NCBI GenBank assembly: GCA_965218585.1
Contig: CBDCLE010000010.1
Location: forward strand, 64,001-128,000
Direction of reading: 5' to 3'
Length of the DNA stretch: 64,000 nt
DNA from: Terriglobia bacterium
Lineage (GTDB): Bacteria; Acidobacteriota; Terriglobia; 20CM-2-55-15
How positions within the stretch are numbered: the stretch's first letter is position 1; each line of letters opens with the position of its first letter. This document shows positions 6,165 through 58,774 of this stretch, piece after piece. Both the position numbers and the translations under genes were made by a program. Below the pieces are notes generated by a model. It saw nothing but the letters and a program-made list of their open reading frames with translations, was not told where the DNA came from and searched no databases.

Positions 6165-6773
6165 ATGTTGGCAAGAACCTTCACGTGTTTACTGGCCATG
6201 GGACCCGTCGGGTTTGCCCAGGTACCCGCAGGACCGCCTTTTGACCCGGATGTCCATCCCAATCCGATCGTTACTTTCGTTCGGAGCAGTGATTTTTCTC
6301 CGACGACATATGATGAAGCAGCAGACAACGCCGGCATTGAGATCGTTGGCCTGTCCTCGGGCACGGCAACCCGGGAAAGTATCGAGATTACCGAGGGTAG
6401 TGTGGAGGAAGTTAAGATCCTCGGTCGGGACATCGAAACTCTCTTCTTCCCTGTTGTGCGGCAACGATTTCAGTTGAACGCCGGCGGGACGCTGACGCTC
6501 TATTCATTCAGAAACCCGAGACCGGACATTGCAGATCGTTTTCTGACATCGGTACTCAACCAACACGCCTTCGCGTCCGAAGACGATCCCTAAAAAGCCC
6601 GCTTCGGAGGGATCGCTGCTCCTGAGCAACTCGGGGTCCTGGGCGTGCCCGCGCTGTTGTTTAACAACGATGGCGAGCTGACGCTGTTCTGGCAGGACCA
6701 GAATGCGTCCTATGTGGCGGACTCGACCATAGATACTGATGCGCTCCTGCGCCTGGTCGAAGACCTGCTCTAG
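6165..6773 (+). pseudogene. Exported hypothetical protein with a premature TAA at 6591-6593
   Basis: Signal peptide. After the TAA the same frame runs 59 codons (KARFGGIAAPEQLGVLG...LTLFWQDQ...LLRLVEDLL) to TAG at 6771-6773. Confidence 0.6.
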
Positions 6774-7046
6774 TGACCTGTACCACCCATATTGGGACCA
6801 GCGTTGCGGCCAAACGGCATTGGATTCTAGGAGTCAGCGACGAGGAAATGCTTCGTTATTGCGAGGAGCTGACGACAACGAAGACGATGCCGTTTCGCCG
6901 TAACCCTAGGGGCCGATGGGGGTTGCGTGCGATATCTTTGTTACGAGCCGTCATTGATGCGATAACATCAATTTCCGTCTCGCGCCGCGATCTCGCCCGC
7001 AAGACCCATCGGCGCTGGTCCCAATATGGGTCGTACAGGCCACTAG
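6770..7046. mobile_element. MITE-like element (277 bp) bounded by 34-bp inverted repeats with CTAG ends
   Basis: CTAGTGACCTGTACCACCCATATTGGGACCAGCG (6770-6803) matches the reverse complement of 7013-7046 at 32/34 positions. No transposase inside. Confidence 0.75.
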
Positions 7047-30281: not shown

Positions 30282-30352
<71 letters not shown>

Positions 30353-38325: not shown

Positions 38326-38531
38326 CCACAAGGCTTCTTGGATAGTGACTTCCTGTCAGGATGGAAAATGCGCGGCAGGCGCAGGGTAGGAACATCGCTT
38401 TTCGGGATGGCCGGAGCCCCCTAGCCGCGCAGAGGAACCTACGTAACTACAAACATCTTCGAATAGAGGACCAGCAGAATAGGTCCGCTTTGAGTTGCCG
38501 TATTTTCGAAAGTCATGGAAGATAGTCCGTT

Positions 38532-40236: not shown

Positions 40237-40309
40237 GGCCCCATCGTCTAGTGGTTTAGGACGTAGCCCTCTCAAGGCTAAAACACGGGTTCGACTCCCG
40301 TTGGGGCTA
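40237..40309 (+). tRNA. tRNA-Glu (CTC)
   Basis: GGCCCCA/TGGGGCT acceptor stem, anticodon loop CTCTCAA, GGTTCGACTCC. Confidence 0.95.
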
Positions 40310-51410: not shown

Positions 51411-52257
51411 GGGGTCAGAGCCCTATTTCTCCATTTACCCCGCCATCTCATGATCCAGAATCGATTCATTTTTACTCGCTGGACGACCACGTTTGCGTGG
51501 GCGGATTCTTCGGCCCAAACGGCCTTCCAATTCGAGTACAAAGCGCTCAGAACCCCAAGGTCGCCCTGAAAGCGTCTGACTGCGGATCAGAGATGTCTTC
51601 TCGGCCGACTCACCTTCTTCGAGCCAGGCAGACCAATCTTTTGGCCATGAACCGGGTGGAAATTCGTCCGTAAGTAGCGTATCGAGTCGTATTCCACAGT
51701 GAGCGCCCGCACTAGACCATTCGTAATCTTCCGCACGGGGAACAATCCCTGCACGAACAGGATTGAGTTCGACATACCTCACAGCATTTCGAAGGTGATT
51801 GGCATCCAACACGCACGAAAAGAAACGCCCTTGCCAGAGATGACCAACGGCACCATACGTCCAATTGAAATACGTAGCGTAAGCGCTATGAGCATCCCGG
51901 ATCGTTGCGGGCAATGAATTTTCATCTTCCGGTACTCCTACCAAATGGACGTGATTTCTCATCAGAACATAGGCCCAGATACCCAATCTGTGTCGCTCGG
52001 CATATTCCCCGAGCAAACGCATGTAAATTTCACAGTCTCTAGAGTCATTGAAAGTCGCCGTTCGTCGGTTTCCGCGTTGGGTAATGTGATGAGGAAGACC
52101 GGGAACGACCACTCGAGTAAATCGCGGCATAATTTTTTTAGGGCTGAAATCGAGGAGGGCTGGCAAAATAAAAAGCAATTCGCCGTTTAACACAAGAGGT
52201 TTTGCGAGTTCCTGTAAAAGCTGTAAGGAGAAATTGGGGAATTAGGGCTCTGACCCC
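51411..52257 (-). mobile_element. RAYT-like Y1 (HUH) transposase (CDS 51435-52130) flanked by 15-bp inverted repeats
   Basis: HHITQRGN, MRNHVHL, GHLWQGRF, YVELNPVRAG. GGGGTCAGAGCCCTA at 51411-51425 is inverted at 52243-52257. Confidence 0.85.
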
Positions 52258-52299: not shown

Positions 52300-52650
52300 A
52301 TGCGTTCTGCGCCGAATCGCACACCATCAAAACTTTCCTTTGAGCAGAGCCCGTTCGCTTTCAATCAACCTGTCACCTCCCAACCGGAAACGATTTCTAC
52401 AGGAATCCAGGAAGTCGACACGCTGTCCCATGGCTTGCCACGAGGCCGGATTACCGAGATCTTTGGCCCGGACTCGTCAGGGCGGACCAGCCTTTTGCTC
52501 TCTACCCTTGCCGAAGTCACTGGAAAAGAAGAAGTTTGCGCTTTTATCGATCCTGCCGGGGTTTTCGACCCCTCATCTGCAGCCCACATGGGGGTGGATC
52601 TGGAACAACTGCTCTGGATCCGCACCCCAAAACCCGATATCAATCAAACA
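52300..52650 (+). pseudogene. RecA-like ImuA protein truncated by IS21
   Basis: ISTGI..D, GLPRGRITEIFG, degenerate Walker A GPDSSGRT, FDP..A..GVDLEQLLW. The frame runs into the IS end. Confidence 0.75.
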
Positions 52651-52818
52651 TGCGTATTCCGGTCGATCGTGATCACTGATTCCGATCCAAGGTGATCAGC
52701 AATTCCGGGATTGTGATCACTGATTCCGGTCATCATGATCACCGATTCCGGCGATCATGATCACCCGTCGATAGCGAAGTTTTACCTGCTAGGTTCTCCT
52801 TACAGGAAGGAGAACTTG

Positions 52819-54369
52819 ATGGGAGCAAAACGGCTATCGATGAGACAGTCACGCGAGATTCTACGATTCAAATACGAACAGGAACTCAGCCACCGGGCCA
52901 TCGCCCGAGCCTGCCGAGTGGGAGTCGGGACGGTATCGGAGTACGTCCGACGAGCGGCAGAGGCGGGGCTGGAATGGCCGCTTCCAGAGGATCTGGACGA
53001 TGCAGCCCTGGAAGCGCGGCTGTTTCCCCACGCGGGACCAGGCTCGAGGGAACGAGTGCCTCCGGATTTGGAACGGATCCACCAGGAGTTGAAGCGTGTG
53101 GGAGTCACGCTGCACCTGCTGTGGGAAGAGTACCGGGAAGCGCATCCGGAAGGATATGCCTACAGCCAGTTCTGTGAGATCTGCCGGCGTTGGGCCCAGA
53201 AACTGAAGCCCTCGATGCGACAGGTGCATCGCGCCGGAGAGAAGGCCTTCATCGACTTTTCCGGCAAACGGCCGCAGCTGACGGATCCACACACGGGCGA
53301 AGCTGTTGCAGTCGAGTTGTTCGTGGCCGTGCTGGGCGCCAGCGGTTACACCTATGCCGAAGCGACTCCGAGCCAGAAACTCCCCGACTGGGTCGGTGTG
53401 CATATCCGCATGGTGGAGTTCTTCGGCGGATCGAGCCGGATCTGGGTTCCCGACCAACTCAAGAGTGCGATTACCCAGTCCTGCCGCTATGAAGCCGGCG
53501 TGAACCGCACCTGCCAAGATGCGGCCGAACACTACGGCGCAGTCGTCATTCCGGCCCGACCACGGAAACCCCGGGACAAGGCCAAGATCGAATCAACCGT
53601 CCTTCTGGCGCAGCGCTGGATTCTGGCGAAGATCAGGAATCGAACATTCTTCAGTCTGGCAGACTTGAACGAGGCGATCCGGGAGTTGCTGGTGGAACTG
53701 AACCAGCGGCCAATGCAAAAGCTTCGAGTGTCCCGTCTGGAACTCTATGAGCGACTGGATCGACCGGCATTACAGTCACTGCCGACCCACCGATATGAAC
53801 AGGCCGAATGGAAGGACTGTCGGGTCAACATCGACTACCACATTAGCGTGGATCGCCATCCTTACAGCGTGCCCTACCAGTTGATCCACCAGACGCTGGA
53901 AGCCCGTTACACCGCGTCCATTGTCGAGGTGTACCACAAAGGCCGGCGCGTCACCTCTCATCGCCGCCGCTACGATCACCAGCCCTCGACACTATCGGAA
54001 CATATGCCCAGTGCCCATCGGGCCCATGCGGAATGGACCCCGTCCCGGCTGATCCATTGGGCCCAGCAGACCGGCCCCAAGACCGGCCGCCTGGTCGAGG
54101 AGATCATGAAACGGTGGCCGCATCCGGAACAGGGGTACCGGGCCTGTCTGGGATTGATGAGTCTGGGGCGCCGTTCCGGCGCCGAGCGGCTCGAAGCCGC
54201 TAGCGCACGGGCACTGCACTTGCGGTCCTATAGCTACCGCACCGTCAAGAACATCCTGTCCTCGGCCCAGGACCGGTTGCCGTTCGAGGAAACCGAAACC
54301 CCACCCACACCCCATCACGACAACATTCGCGGCGCCGCCTACTATGCGGATCCGGAGGAGACGCACTGA
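52819..54369 (+). CDS. istA: IS21 transposase IstA
   Basis: GEKAFIDFSG, VPDQLKS, KPRDKAKIE, YSVPY. Confidence 0.93.
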   Translation: MGAKRLSMRQSREILRFKYEQELSHRAIARACRVGVGTVSEYVRRAAEAGLEWPLPEDLDDAALEARLFPHAGPGSRERVPPDLERIHQELKRVGVTLHLLWEEYREAHPEGYAYSQFCEICRRWAQKLKPSMRQVHRAGEKAFIDFSGKRPQLTDPHTGEAVAVELFVAVLGASGYTYAEATPSQKLPDWVGVHIRMVEFFGGSSRIWVPDQLKSAITQSCRYEAGVNRTCQDAAEHYGAVVIPARPRKPRDKAKIESTVLLAQRWILAKIRNRTFFSLADLNEAIRELLVELNQRPMQKLRVSRLELYERLDRPALQSLPTHRYEQAEWKDCRVNIDYHISVDRHPYSVPYQLIHQTLEARYTASIVEVYHKGRRVTSHRRRYDHQPSTLSEHMPSAHRAHAEWTPSRLIHWAQQTGPKTGRLVEEIMKRWPHPEQGYRACLGLMSLGRRSGAERLEAASARALHLRSYSYRTVKNILSSAQDRLPFEETETPPTPHHDNIRGAAYYADPEETH

Positions 54370-55130
54370 TGCTAATGGAACAGACCCTGGAGAAGATGAA
54401 CCAGATGAAGCTATCGGCCATGGTCGCGGCCCTGGATCAGCAACGCATCTCGAATCAGTACACCGATCTCAGCTTCGAGGAACGTTTGGGCCTGCTGATC
54501 GATGAGGAATGGACCGCTCGGGAGCACCGCAAGCTCACCCGGCGCCTGCGCGCGGCCAAGCTGCGCTACACGACCGCATCGCTGGAAAACGTCGACTTCA
54601 AACATCGTCGCAGTCTGGACCGTTCCCAAGTCCTCGCCCTGGGCTCGGGCGGATGGGTCCAGGACCGGCACAATCTCATCATTACCGGTCCAACAGGCAT
54701 CGGAAAGAGCTTCCTGGCTTCGGCCTTCGTCGAACGTGCTTGCCGGCAGGGCTTCAACGCCACCTACGTCCGCATGCCCCGGCTGTTGCACACCCTGGCG
54801 GTCGGCCGTGGAGACGGCTCCTACACCCGAGTTCTGGCCCGGTTGGCCAAGGCCGATCTGTTGGCCATCGACGACTGGCTCCTGGCTCCGCTACGCGACT
54901 CCGAACGCCGGGACCTGATCGAAGTCGTGGAGGAACGTAGCAAACGCTCCGCCATCCTGATTGCCAGCCAGCTCCCGGTCGCCGACTGGCACAGCGCCAT
55001 CGGCGACCCCAACCAGGCCGACGCCATCTGCGATCGCCTCCTCCACAATGCGCACCGCATCGAACTCAAGGGGCGTTCGATGAGACGCACCCGGACCGCG
55101 CCAAAAGCATCCTCCAGCGAGTCGGAATGA
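54369..55130 (+). CDS. istB: IS21 helper ATPase IstB
   Basis: GPTGIGKS, LAIDDW, DAICDRL. Confidence 0.93.
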   Translation: MLMEQTLEKMNQMKLSAMVAALDQQRISNQYTDLSFEERLGLLIDEEWTAREHRKLTRRLRAAKLRYTTASLENVDFKHRRSLDRSQVLALGSGGWVQDRHNLIITGPTGIGKSFLASAFVERACRQGFNATYVRMPRLLHTLAVGRGDGSYTRVLARLAKADLLAIDDWLLAPLRDSERRDLIEVVEERSKRSAILIASQLPVADWHSAIGDPNQADAICDRLLHNAHRIELKGRSMRRTRTAPKASSSESE

Positions 55131-55417
55131 AAACGGAACGGAACAAGACAAACCAGTGGCCTGTGGAAAATGACGCCTATGGAAATCCACAAAACACGTG
55201 GATTCCCACAGCCTTGGAAAAGCCTGCGACTTTCCCACATTTACACACAGGCCCGGCGACCAACAACAACGTTATGAAAGGATTCAAACAAGAATCGTGG
55301 ACTTCGGGAGGTCTAAACTGAGATCCTAAACTTCGCTTCGCTCCGGCGGGTGATCACAATCACCGGAATCCGTGATCAGGATCCCGGAACTGCTGATCAC
55401 GTTCAGCGGAATACACA

Positions 55418-55621
55418 CCCCATGGATATGAGGGCACTATCGGTCTTAGGGAGGCGGACTCCAACGGTAGCTACGAAAAGTACAGCTAGCGTAAGGAATG
55501 CCCATTGAGGCGTGAATTTGTTTCCGGGCGCGAAAAGACAAAGTAGTGCCAGAGGAGCACCGACTACGTAGATTCCGAGGAGATATTTCTTAAGCCCGGG
55601 TTCTATATTTTGCCACTTCAC
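55418..55621 (-). pseudogene. N-terminus of a membrane sensor protein truncated by IS21
   Basis: GTG start with RBS, two TM helices and VRLPKTDSALIS, then cut by the IS right end. It resembles the multi-TM N-termini of HD-GYP/GGDEF sensors (inference). Confidence 0.6.
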
Positions 55622-55650
55622 GTCAGGGGATACTCCCTTGACGCTTGTTC

Positions 55651-55680
55651 AGCAGGAGGATGGGCAAGAAAACCTCCTGC
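55651..55680 (-). terminator. Hairpin downstream of the peptide genes
   Basis: GCAGGAGG...CCTCCTGC inverted repeat. U-tract is weak. Confidence 0.4.
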
Positions 55681-55705
55681 CGAACACGTCAATTTTAAGA
55701 GAATG

Positions 55706-55804
55706 CTAGAAGGGCCACCATATCTCACTCGGAGCAATCTTCTGTTCCAACTCTTCAATTTCAATCTCGACATCAAGGGTAGCGACTTTGTTTTCGGCCA
55801 TCAT
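55706..55804 (-). CDS. Putative peptide precursor MMAENKVATLDVEIEIEELEQKIAP-SEIWWPF; not in the ORF track
   Basis: GGAG RBS, an acidic leader ending IEELEQKIAP, and a short aromatic core. It lies downstream of an M50/HlyD gene. Confidence 0.7.
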   Translation of the reverse strand: MMAENKVATLDVEIEIEELEQKIAPSEIWWPF

Positions 55805-55897
55805 TATTCTCCAGGGACGGTTATAAAACGAAAGATTTTCTCTTCGCGCGCATCTTTTGCGATGCTGCGCGGCACCATTCGAAGTCTCACTTCTGGG

Positions 55898-55924
55898 CTA
55901 CACCCAGATCACGCCATACGACAT
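55898..55924 (-). CDS. Micro-ORF MSYGVIWV; not in the ORF track
   Basis: Perfect GGAGG 6 nt before the ATG. It is the first RBS downstream of the riboswitch pair. Confidence 0.5.
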   Translation of the reverse strand: MSYGVIWV

Positions 55925-55969
55925 GGACTACCTCCAGATTTGGATTTTGGGTTCAATGATCCCCAAAAA

Positions 55970-56076
55970 CTCGGCAGCCCGACCGACATGGCTTCTCGAA
56001 CGGGGCATCGTGCCCGACCGAAAAAACGTTAGCCTCGTAAGCTTTGCGTCCCCGCCTTTCGGCGGATTTGCCTTTG
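55970..56076 (-). ncRNA. c-di-GMP-I (GEMM) riboswitch, downstream copy
   Basis: GGCAAAUCCGCC-GAAA-GGCGGGGACGCAAAGC...GCUAA...AUG..GGGCUGCCGA. Confidence 0.85.
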
Positions 56077-56149
56077 TCTTGTAAAGGAACTCGTTGCTAA
56101 ATAAAGGAGGGCAGAAGGCTCCGTGCTCAGTAGCTGCCGCTTCCTTCAC

Positions 56150-56236
56150 CTGGCGGCCCGACGGGCATAGCCTCGATTCTTTCGAGCCCTTAGCCTGTGG
56201 CTTTGCGTCCTCGCCTTTCGACGGGTTTGCCCTTAC
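56150..56236 (-). ncRNA. c-di-GMP-I (GEMM) riboswitch, upstream copy
   Basis: GGGCAAACCCGUC-GAAA-GGCGAGGACGCAAAGCC..GGCUAA...AUG..GGGCCGCC. Confidence 0.8.
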
Positions 56237-56370
56237 AAGTGGTTTATCGCCTTCAGTACATTAAGAAGTGGGTAACAGGGGAAAAATACTAGAATTACTA
56301 AAATACTTTGATTCTCGCGTGCCCCTGTGATCGGGAAAGCGCGAAAATTGCGTGTTCTGAATGGGATGGA

Positions 56371-58774
56371 CTAGGGCAGGAGGTGCCAGAATTCGGTCCG
56401 AATCAGGCGGACAAACCCGCGCGTCATTACCTGGATTATCGGTCGGCTGTCGGCATAGATCTTGGCCACGCCGGTCATTTCCTCTTTCAGGGCGCCATTC
56501 TCGTTCGACAGCTCCTCCCACTCCTCCCACAGACCCGTTCGAGTGCGACTCATAAGGGTGCGGACTTTGACGAAGAGTTCGCCGTTAACCGTTTCCGCTA
56601 CAGGAGCGATGAAGTCCACCTCTCCTTCGTAGTCGATCGCAGGGTAAGAGCGGACTTTCAAGACGACGCGGCTACCGGGATCGACGTCGACCATTTCCTC
56701 TTCCGGAACAAGCAACTCGGCCCAGACACGGTTCACATCCACGATTCGGACCACTTCTTCGCCTGGCAACACGTGCCGGTTCAGGAGACGCTCGACGAAC
56801 GGCGTGACGACGGTTCCCGAGATCGGTGCTACGATCCGGTTCTTCTTGATTTCATCAGTCAGAATCTTCTGTTGCGACTCCAGCATCTCGACCTCTGCCT
56901 GGGTTTGCTGGATTTCCTCGGACCGGAACCCGGCCATTAGAAGCGCGAGCGCGCTTTCCGCCTCGGCCAACTCCCGCTCCTTGAGGTCTTCTTCGCGGTC
57001 GTTGGATTCGGTCAGGATGTCGAGTGAAGCTTCCGTTTCGGCCACGGCACTCTGCTGGATCTGGAGTTCGGTTTCGGCTTTCTCCATATCGATGCGCGGT
57101 CCCGGTCCCTCCTCGAACAGATCGCGCGTCCGCCGAAACTCGATATCCGCCAGCTGCAGTTCCGTCTGTTCCCTCGTCAGGGTCTGTTCCAGCTGGTTAC
57201 GTTGCTGAAGATTTCTCCGGACGTTATTCAACTCCTGCCGTTTCGTGTCCACCAACCGTTCAGCGCGGTCCACTTCTTCGTCGCGTGGCCCCGTCTCCAG
57301 CAGATCTAGTTCGGCCCGTTTCTGTGCCAGCCCACCGTCGATTAGAGAGAGGTTTCGTTCGTTGTCGAAATCGTACAGCACGGCAATGAGTTCGCCTTCA
57401 TTGACGTGGTCGTTCTCGCCGACCATGGTCTCCCTCACTGTCCCTTCGGTTTGGGAACGCACAACCCTTACTTCGTTCGGAAGGATGGTGAAGTCCGCAC
57501 GAATCTTCAGGGTCCACGGGAAAAAGATCGTCACTAGCAACAGGACGCCGACAATACCCAGGTTGCGATACTTCCTGAGGGCGACTCGCGCCCCCACAGC
57601 CTTGGCTGCAGCGACCGGCTCGATAGCGGTGCGTTTGATTGTGAAGCCTGCAAACATCGCAAAACCCACGAGCCCCGCAAAATTCCAGTACGAGGTCGTC
57701 AGCATAAAGATGTTAACGTAAACCAGTGCAAGCAGTAACGTTGAAAAGGTCAGAGAAATCCCGCCGTAGAGGAGCAGTGCCCGGCGGTGCTCGCCCTTGA
57801 TCAATGGTTCTGCCTTACCGGCGATCCAGGCCTGGACCGCCTGAAAGGCCTTGGCCCGAAGGTTCGGGATCTCGAGGTAGTCGCTCAGAATGTAGTAACC
57901 GTCCAGCTTGATCAGCGGATTGAAGTTGAACAGGGTCTGGAGTCCGGCGAACAAAATAATCATTAATGCAATCTGGCCGATGAACGTGTCTTCCGCCACG
58001 ATGCGCCACACGATCAGCGCCAGTCCCCATATCACCAGCTGGAAGTAACCGCCGGCAAACGTCACCCACATCCGGTCGCGCCGTCGGGGAAACATCCAGG
58101 AATCGCTCACGTCGCAATACAGGGCAGGCGCGAAGTAGATCAGCATGAAACCGAGTTCGCGCACCTTGCCTCCGAAGTAACGGCACGTCAGTCCGTGCGC
58201 GAACTCGTGCATTGTCACCACGCACACCACGACGACCCAAATCATCAGGAACCCGTACACGCTGATCAGCGACGCCACCTGGTTGCCCAGCCGTGCGCCG
58301 TTCGAAAAGCTAATGAAGAATCCAGTCAGGATAATCAGCACTGCAAAGACGTGGAACGTAGGAGTGAAGAACCAGCGCACCTTCGGAAACAACCATTCGA
58401 AGACACGTTCTGCGTTCAAAGAAAAAAGCCGATAGTAGAGAAGGTTCTGGTCTTTGGGCTTTCTCGCCGTGAATTCAGCGATCTGCTCATGGACTTCGGG
58501 TGTGTCGAGAAGTTGCTTCTGCTCGAGGGAATGGAGCAGGCCTTCGAGTGATTCCGCTTTAACGGGGACACCGAATCTGCTCGCCGCCGCGCTGGCCAGC
58601 GATTCCAGATCGATCGGCTCGCGGATCAGTTCGAGGATCGAGGATGATGCCCTGATTCTCGGTGAAGCGCAGGTAGCGTTTCGTCACCGGATCTTTCACG
58701 ACAACATATTTCTTGCCGTGCTGCGTCTGCGTCGAAAACTCCAGTTCAGGTCGCAGGCTGTAAAGATCCGACAT
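56371..58774 (-). pseudogene. PqqD/RRE-like + M50 zinc protease + HlyD adaptor fusion, frameshifted by a 7-bp duplication
   Basis: VVKDPVTKRYLRF N-terminal domain, HEFAH and NPLIKLDG (M50), coiled coil, IVAPISGTV hairpin/barrel. CGAGGAT is duplicated at 58632-58645. Confidence 0.85.

Follow-up and report, generated by a model that had tools for sequence, protein, structure and literature searches.

In Firmicutes, the M50 protease Eep releases hydrophobic pheromones of 7-8 amino acids, some of them with Trp (the enterococcal sex pheromones, SHP/XIP). Another M50 membrane protease, EpeP/YydH of the epipeptide systems, is thought to cleave and export a small peptide. The daptides, a class of peptides that are made by the ribosome and modified after translation (RiPPs), were found by way of a RiPP recognition element (RRE) fused N-terminally to an intramembrane site-2 protease, and their leader is given as ELExMEAP, with the final Pro numbered as position -1 (10.1101/2023.03.08.531785). 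Tandem riboswitches for cyclic di-GMP (c-di-GMP) are likewise a described arrangement (PMC4759541, PMC12452182). Here, we describe a locus that brings components of these known kinds together, namely a GEMM-I riboswitch, a daptide-type RRE-site-2-protease peptidase, an HlyD adaptor and an HD-GYP enzyme. The locus lies in a stretch of 64,000 nucleotides, referred to below as the window, from a Terriglobia bacterium of soil (GenBank assembly GCA_965218585.1, contig CBDCLE010000010.1, positions 64,001 to 128,000); the genome, G000, is a 4.55-Mb assembly that is 95% complete.

The whole region is read here, with the balance of probability tipped modestly in favour, as an inactivated example of a cassette that is conserved across a Solibacteraceae-like clade of the Terriglobia (Acidobacteriota) and in which c-di-GMP would license the production of short exported peptides together with a c-di-GMP-lowering phosphodiesterase. 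In intact relatives the cassette comprises a constitutively placed gene for a fusion of an RRE, an M50 site-2 protease and an HlyD adaptor (RRE-M50-HlyD), two aptamers with a terminator after the second, and a predicted single transcript. On this transcript, one or two tiny open reading frames (ORFs) of the form M..[YF][GA]VIW[VI] are accompanied by a precursor of ~32 amino acids (aa) and a phosphodiesterase with multiple transmembrane (TM) segments, an HD-GYP domain, a GAF domain and a degenerate GGDEF domain. The predicted precursor consists of a leader, hxhxhEELExK[IVT]AP, and a tail of 6-10 aa, and in the clade it follows the riboswitches and heads the HD-GYP mRNA. An earlier note, made from the letters of the window, had listed the fusion gene, two riboswitches, two micro-ORFs and the start of a multi-TM protein, and every one of these elements is present in the window and conserved in relatives. 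The note had also anticipated that homologous fusions would be adjoined by LE(E/Q)(K/R)IAP ORFs, RF01051 aptamers and TM-HD-GYP/GGDEF genes, and all three were found in such neighbourhoods. A literature search, limited to one article collection, returned no description of this layout, of the fusion and its wiring, or of the motif strings, and no paper on tandem c-di-GMP riboswitches gating peptide genes tied to a RiPP-type protease.

The fusion protein and its candidate precursors

In relatives, the full-length fusion protein is ~785-810 aa. The window copy matches Peptidase_M50 (PF02163) at 27.9 bits (cut-off 27.2), HlyD_3 at 53.9 (cut-off 22.2) and HlyD_D23 at 49.6 (cut-off 30), and it keeps the HEFAH and NPLIKLDGYY motifs of an M50 site-2 protease, with H191, E192, H195 and D293 invariant in 63 homologues. 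The gene is single-copy in G000. A search of 41 genomes detected it at E<=1e-20 in 25, one of them G000; among the 24 other genomes of the same family, 20 have it. Homologues are named in databases as 'putative peptide zinc metalloprotease protein' (JGI), 'AcrA membrane-fusion protein' or 'hypothetical'.

The N-terminal domain was modelled on an intact relative, as the domain of the window copy is frameshifted. AlphaFold2 predicts the first 120 residues of this relative with a pLDDT of 93.4, and the best Foldseek matches in the PDB are nearly all RiPP recognition elements, among them TbiB1 with its leader (TMt 0.74), PqqD, MibB, TigE, ThcOx, LynD, MccB and CteB; the E-values of these matches are weak, the best being 8.7e-3. 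By this model the N-terminal domain has an RRE/PqqD-like fold, in agreement with the leader-binding, PqqD-like domain that had been proposed from the window alone.

Comparison with the daptide system reveals both likeness and difference. Like the daptide protease MpaP, the fusion joins an N-terminal RRE to an M50 membrane protease, and it matches the profile NF041824 (daptide_HExxH) at 193.7 bits for the window copy and at 231.4 bits, over profile positions 7-360 of 379, for a full-length relative. Both scores fall under the family cut-off of 300, and on these matches the fusion is homologous to the daptide RRE-site-2-protease but is no equivalog of NF041824. It also differs from MpaP in its added C-terminal HlyD adaptor. 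On the substrate side, the clade leader is of the ELExxxAP type and ends in Pro; ELEQKIAP of the window shares E-L-E and A-P with the MpaA leader ELExMEAP as quoted in the text of the daptide report, and many relatives carry several precursor genes per locus, as do daptide loci in that text. Unlike the daptide clusters, however, the cassette has no oxidative decarboxylase, aminotransferase or methyltransferase genes nearby: no daptide tailoring enzyme ranked in the 25 commonest families of 150 neighbouring proteins, and none was found among the neighbours in the window or in the clade relatives. The C-terminal Thr that is invariant in daptides is absent from all 74 precursors of the cassette family, with the window peptide ending in Phe, and the cores are not aliphatic-rich and are encoded by Gram-negative phyla. 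A true daptide cluster was rejected on the lack of C-terminal Thr and of tailoring genes.

The other known systems are matched in part. With EpeP/YydH the fusion shares the M50 membrane protease and a weak NCBIfam match to NF058609, but the cassette lacks a radical-SAM epimerase and adds the RRE and HlyD domains. The Eep pheromone systems work alike, without homology of the substrates; the cassette has no lipoprotein signal peptide, PptAB exporter or RRNPP receptor, and its candidate receptor would instead be the membrane HD-GYP enzyme. The HlyD_3 and HlyD_D23 matches, together with a weak match to TIGR03794 (NHLM_micro_HlyD), recall the adaptors of peptide and bacteriocin exporters, which differ in being partners of an adjacent ABC transporter, whereas the cassette adaptor is fused to the protease.

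The candidate substrate in the window is a precursor-like ORF with a daptide-like leader, ...EIEELEQKIAP, followed by a tail of 7 aa, SEIWWPF. The leader motif xEELExK[IVT]APx is found in 13 of 15 clade sequences, and the two exceptions end at a contig edge. Earlier it had been proposed that the fusion binds an ELExxIAP leader, and as a predicted pairing this is supported by the daptide homology and by a complex model of residues 1-400 of the intact relative with its own 32-aa precursor. This model of the protein with its leader, also suggested earlier, passed with a score of 0.70 (best control 0.00), a mark reached by 58 of 80 solved complexes and by 2 of 110 mismatched pairs, and it speaks for likeness and for the plausibility of RRE-leader pairing and not for binding as such. 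At least 74% of contacts agree among runs, with a partner pLDDT of at least 61. The modelled complex places leader residues 10-19 on strand 37-42 and helix 71-88 of the RRE, and residues 20-25 (K-T-A-P-S-A) next to H191/E192 and to the conserved segments 219-228 and 291-296. For the binding of the leader and for the cleavage after Pro that had been predicted, the daptide RRE-site-2-protease, with its ELExMEAP substrates and Pro at -1, offers a precedent by analogy.

The proposed product fared less well. Relatives do not conserve the Trp-rich heptapeptide SEIWWPF; they differ in what follows AP (SGSLAVDK, SAVATGILE, DSGSVPIIE and others), and SEIWWPF resembles only SGSLWPF of G002 and the core start GELVWPF of a second precursor in G000. 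This second, stand-alone precursor gene lies on contig C2 at ~117617-117769, begins MEPKSLIEGFELELEIKVEELEERIAPGELVWPFPGGKGKGG, and is placed between pepA and queD; a remnant of its Gly-rich tail is repeated ~300 nucleotides (nt) downstream. G012 (locus L139) has a syntenic precursor between pepA and queD. Among curated families, Pfam and NCBIfam hold none for the precursors; Amm_Lyn_leader (E 0.02-0.08) was the best of the matches they gave, all of which were at chance level.

The fusion and its precursors belong to a wider family. At E<=1e-10, 1189 proteins match the fusion, and a scan of one genome per species yielded at least 523 confirmed relatives of the RRE-M50 part, from which 80 loci were kept and joined by two loci of a second family described below, giving 82. 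ORFs with the strict motif [ED][ED][LIVM]Ex[KRMIQ][IVT]AP lie beside M50-HlyD homologues in 41 of these 82 loci, and all 74 such ORFs are on the strand of the protease gene. Outside the clade they are upstream of the protease gene in 54 of 60 cases, and in the clade they are downstream in 12 of 12. In an alignment of 51 of them, EELE and AP are invariant. The cores outside the clade are 30-40 aa in length, with much Gly, Asn and Pro, and the same few types are met in different phyla, whereas those of the Solibacteraceae-like clade are 6-10 aa. The family is found in Verrucomicrobiota, Gemmatimonadota, Nitrospirota, Bacteroidota and other phyla. A DNA pattern for the motif was matched in both genomes tested that have the fusion and no adjacent peptide and in none of three genomes without the fusion; a reversed control pattern gave one match.

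Loci L062-L124 carry EELE[EQ]RIAP precursors, with up to 5 precursor genes per locus, and some core types, for instance GNPGNNNPP.NNTNNPGNEGTGGQVSTGG, are nearly unchanged across Verrucomicrobiota, Gemmatimonadota, Acidobacteriota and Bacteroidota. A Pfam census of the 150 neighbouring proteins showed no recurrent tailoring enzyme, the commonest families being TPR (12) and M24 peptidase (8). The latter are Xaa-Pro-type peptidases (Peptidase_M24 with Creatinase_N) found beside M50-HlyD genes in L062-L117, and suggestively they would fit a leader that ends in Ala-Pro.

Riboswitches, the HD-GYP enzyme and the proposed circuit

Both aptamers of the window exceed the RF01051 gathering score of 35 in a covariance-model search, and they stand in tandem in the putative 5' leader of the peptide and HD-GYP genes. 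As in the described tandem GEMM-I riboswitches, two complete RF01051 aptamers are arranged in series; the difference is that the first ORFs controlled here are peptide genes of 7-35 codons tied to a RiPP-type protease. Across the whole of G000 RF01051 has no match besides these two, and every genomic match falls at the cassette locus in G000, G005, G007, G008, G017, G021 and G024 alike. Rfam placed aptamers a short way downstream of the fusion gene in 8 of 20 loci, and in 3 of another 7. From 18 of these aptamers, in all of which the sequence GCAAAG is invariant, a covariance model was built; run over 86 loci (977 kb), it found aptamers in L072, a Nitrospirota locus, and in 11 loci of the clade, and nowhere else. 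The second aptamer of some relatives is scored as the variant RF03167. Further RF01051 sites in G009, G018, G019 and G038 lie before genes for large secreted proteins or for an AraC-type regulator and not before peptide genes, and thus the riboswitch is not peptide-specific in every genome.

The L072 locus, from a Candidatus Sulfobium metagenome-assembled genome, has a c-di-GMP-I-GGC variant aptamer at 6356-6434 (59.3 bits; gathering score 59), ~300 nt upstream of an EVLEERIAP precursor (~6747-6899) and of its M50-HlyD gene, which suggests that the link between riboswitch and precursor arose more than once.

In relatives, GGGCUGCC, the 3' strand of aptamer 2, is also the 5' arm of a terminator hairpin that is followed by a U-tract. 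Terminators overlapping aptamer 2 in L045, L050, L051 and L057 have folding energies of -28 to -33 kcal/mol (z -3.1 to -5.8), and those of L049 and L058 are weaker. Since ligand-bound aptamer 2 and the terminator should be mutually exclusive, the riboswitch is inferred to be an ON switch for c-di-GMP.

The last gene of the cassette had been described earlier as a membrane protein, possibly of the HD-GYP/GGDEF kind, and in relatives it does encode a multi-TM HD-GYP-GAF-GGDEF protein of ~816 aa, with a hydrophobic multi-TM N-terminal region that has no Pfam match, followed by HD_5 (HD-GYP), GAF and GGDEF. The HD and GYP motifs are intact in all nine orthologues. Degenerate GGDEF motifs (TNEEF, ANDEF, ASDEF and others), with RxxD kept, are seen in 7 of 7 clade-family proteins, and the motif is canonical in both proteins of the second family. 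The window copy retains only 68 N-terminal membrane residues, and the HD_5 domain and the HD and GYP motifs are missing from it. The next gene in relatives encodes a Pkinase-AAA_16-TPR protein.

In the second family (L040 and L041), the gene order is a STAND sigma-54 activator, a precursor, a small 2-TM ORF, the RRE-M50-HlyD gene, an S8 protease gene and a TM-HD-GYP-GAF-GGDEF gene, with no riboswitch in the arrangement. The precursors read MEE..VEELE..AP-NVIWTGN or AP-NILWGV, and a VIW-type motif thus stands in the core after AP. In G020, the module of tiny ORF, leader ORF and HD-GYP gene stays together 14.5 kb from the fusion gene. Because the association is kept in the second family and in G020, the linkage of peptide, protease and HD-GYP survives rearrangement. 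Gene neighbourhood is the sole basis for a putative functional tie of the peptides to the HD-GYP protein, the sensing of a peptide included. The small ORF of the second family (67-70 aa; L040:5656-5859, L041:5258-5470) has two hydrophobic segments and no Pfam match, and the S8 gene that follows the fusion gene in both loci is a subtilase.

If these parts act together as their structures suggest, high c-di-GMP would fold the aptamers and block the terminator, and the transcript would be read through. The RRE domain of the fusion, by homology and by the model, would then bind the ELExKIAP leader, the M50 site may cleave after Ala-Pro by analogy with the daptides, and the fused HlyD adaptor could pass the short tail out of the cell. 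The co-transcribed HD-GYP enzyme, as judged from its domains, would lower c-di-GMP and so provide negative feedback.

A number of observations weigh against this scheme. Transcription, translation, cleavage, export and ligand binding in the cassette are all predictions, drawn from sequence, models and analogy. The fusion scores below the cut-off for daptide proteases, and its surroundings encode no ABC, MFS or outer-membrane protein with which its HlyD domain could partner. The complex model used alignments made by the authors, and solved RRE-leader complexes such as TbiB1-TbiA exist, so that its pass may partly reflect likeness to these. The tail after AP is short, variable and often without Trp, an odd trait in a specific signal. 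The tiny ORF, which is the most conserved of the peptides, has no leader and does not fit the model of an RRE substrate, and L053 lacks it; its first residues resemble the N-terminus of the precursor (MNEN-YGVIW versus MNEN-SALLT). Clade loci with peptides and without an aptamer are also found (L046, L052, L061 and G020). In addition, the locus is broken in G000-G004, G007, G013, G017, G021 and L058, and breakage of such frequency could mean that it is dispensable or costly.

The nature of the small ORFs bears most directly on the alternatives. Of 15 clade sequences, 14 contain the tiny-ORF pattern [YFC][GAS]VIW[VIT]; its 16 copies represent 15 different nucleotide versions. Being very short and placed in a structured leader region, the micro-ORFs might be chance frames in the riboswitch expression platform that are conserved at the RNA level, but this is scarcely credible. 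V, I and W are invariant over four Val codons, two Ile codons and all three stop codons, and third-position changes dominate, with differences at codon positions 1, 2 and 3 of 70, 112 and 287 for the tiny ORF and of 130, 95 and 412 for the leader motif. Each ORF has its own Shine-Dalgarno sequence, and the six-frame translation of the 4.55 Mb of G000 yields a single match to the tiny-ORF pattern and two to the strict leader motif (in the window and on contig C2). The codon patterns and the genome-wide counts led to the rejection of chance ORFs and of conservation in RNA only, and it is because of their conservation in relatives that the micro-ORFs are not regarded as chance ORFs. An unlikely but more substantial alternative is that the small ORFs, and the tiny YGVIW[VI] ORF in particular, are cis-acting leader peptides (uORFs) of the HD-GYP mRNA, whose translation or ribosome stalling tunes the phosphodiesterase in an ordinary c-di-GMP feedback unit from which no peptide is exported. 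GEMM-I before genes of c-di-GMP turnover is an ordinary arrangement, and very short hydrophobic arrest peptides are known upstream of regulated genes. The tiny ORF is always the first ORF past the aptamer-2 terminator, and in G020 it keeps company with the leader ORF and the HD-GYP gene at a distance from the fusion gene. It is, however, duplicated on either side of the precursor in L045 and L050, and fused to the precursor N-terminus in L046 and to the core C-terminus in L051, which a strictly positional cis element would not tolerate; such fusions and duplications argue against a purely positional cis role. Moreover, the longer ORF is one of a family of 74 that accompany RRE-M50-HlyD genes without an HD-GYP gene in the vicinity, its predicted complex passes, and in the second family the VIW motif is found in the core after AP (NVIWTGN, NILWGV).

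It is also possible, if rather doubtful, that the peptides are weapons or other secreted effectors of a bacteriocin- or RiPP-like kind, perhaps modified by enzymes encoded elsewhere, with the c-di-GMP link serving only to time their production to sessile life and with no sensing of them by the HD-GYP protein. Known M50-processed RiPPs, the epipeptides and daptides, are described as antimicrobial (PMC12749797), and in other phyla the same leader carries recurring Gly/Asn/Pro-rich cores of 30-40 aa, unlike strain-specific signals. Against this, the clade cores are merely 6-10 aa, the census of 150 proteins revealed no immunity, tailoring or ABC genes conserved beside the cassette, and the linkage to TM-HD-GYP-GAF-GGDEF is kept in two families despite gene rearrangement. 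A further proposal, which we consider quite improbable as it stands, is that the leaderless YGVIW[VI] ORF of 7-10 aa is itself active, either as an extracellular signal or as a leader-mimic that modulates the RRE-protease, with the membrane HD-GYP/GGDEF enzyme of the same mRNA as receptor. If so, the c-di-GMP state of an acidobacterial cell would be converted directly to a secreted peptide signal that feeds back on the c-di-GMP of neighbouring cells, in effect a peptide-based quorum circuit of Gram-negative bacteria that runs through a riboswitch.

If the favoured reading of c-di-GMP-licensed, exported peptides is true, the cassette would be the first case found of a second-messenger riboswitch directly gating RiPP-type precursor genes, and it would connect peptide secretion with c-di-GMP signalling in Acidobacteriota, a phylum that is abundant in soil and has been little studied. 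A large uncharacterised family of RRE-M50-HlyD proteins with EELExRIAP precursors is exposed in addition, and the daptide precedent makes the protease-leader step directly testable.

The window copy and its surroundings

All parts of the cassette in the window are on the minus strand and are read from 58774 to 55418 (Table 1).

Table 1. Features of the cassette copy in the window (window coordinates)
Feature	Position	Strand	Basis or remark
RRE-M50-HlyD fusion gene	58774..56371	-	two frames: 58774..58559 + 58419..56371
Fusion gene, 5' part with start of RRE (PqqD-like) domain	58559..58774	-	frame lost after ~codon 45
7-nt insertion, tandem duplication of ATCCTCG	~58641..58647	-	alignment with same-genus genomes
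Fusion gene, remainder: M50 site-2-protease membrane domain and HlyD-type periplasmic adaptor	56371..58419	-	Pfam/NCBIfam matches
c-di-GMP-I aptamer 1	56149..56241	-	RF01051, 55.4 bits
c-di-GMP-I aptamer 2, terminator degenerate in window copy	55970..56082	-	RF01051, 64.7 bits
Tiny ORF MSYGVIWV, 8 codons	55898..55924	-	Shine-Dalgarno GGAGG + 6 nt
Precursor-like ORF MMAENKVATLDVEIEIEELEQKIAPSEIWWPF, 32 aa	55706..55804	-	Shine-Dalgarno GGAGA; motif EELEQKIAP
First 68 codons of multi-TM HD-GYP-GAF-GGDEF gene	55418..55621	-	homology ends at 55418; IS21 beyond
IS21-family insertion sequence interrupting HD-GYP gene	52689..55417	+	inverted repeats + istA/istB

The cassette in G000 is dead or crippled, with the RRE frameshifted, the HD-GYP gene cut by IS21 and the terminator lost. 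The 7-nt insertion in the RRE is not present in the same-genus genomes G001 and G003. A contig of a second public sequencing run spans the insertion site without a gap, and contigs of two other studies, 90-95% alike to the window, are missing the 7 nt; the insertion is therefore taken as real and recent and not as an assembly slip. At aptamer 2, a 5-bp hairpin followed by U5 remains of the terminator (z -0.19). The HD-GYP remnant aligns with residues 2-71 of the L028 orthologue, and in a search of G000 the rest of the gene was not found, the matches being paralogues of 36-40% identity.

The element that interrupts the HD-GYP gene belongs to the IS21 family, with istA (52735-54369) and istB (54369-55130) lying between terminal inverted repeats at 52689-52743 and 55349-55403 (55 nt, 85% complementary) and with Pfam matches to IstB_IS21, rve and Mu-transpos_C_2. 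Its junction with the HD-GYP gene is bridged by a contig from a further data set (X1). A fragment of a RecA-like (PF00154) gene at 52300-52695 (+) runs into the left end of the element. The flanks of the IS21 are therefore mismatched, and a rearrangement or deletion mediated by the element is suggested.

Disruption of the orthologous locus is recurrent. Transposases (IS256-like, IS21 and IS5/IS1182-like), stop codons or frameshifts are found in L026, L033, L039 and L042, which are of the same genus, and in L035, L038 and L058, and in G001 a transposase gene stands in place of the riboswitch and the peptides.

The window neighbours of the cassette are a cold-shock protein gene, QueA and the IS21. 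A sigma-70 promoter scan of 55350-56450 gave 0 sites. At 51435-52193 (-), next to the RecA-like fragment, an ORF resembles an IS200/REP-type transposase, as judged by eye. Further away, an int-alpA RNA match at 38352-38431 (-; 36.9 bits, cut-off 35.8) and two tRNA genes, at 30282-30352 (+) and 40237-40309 (+), may mark the edge of an integrated element.

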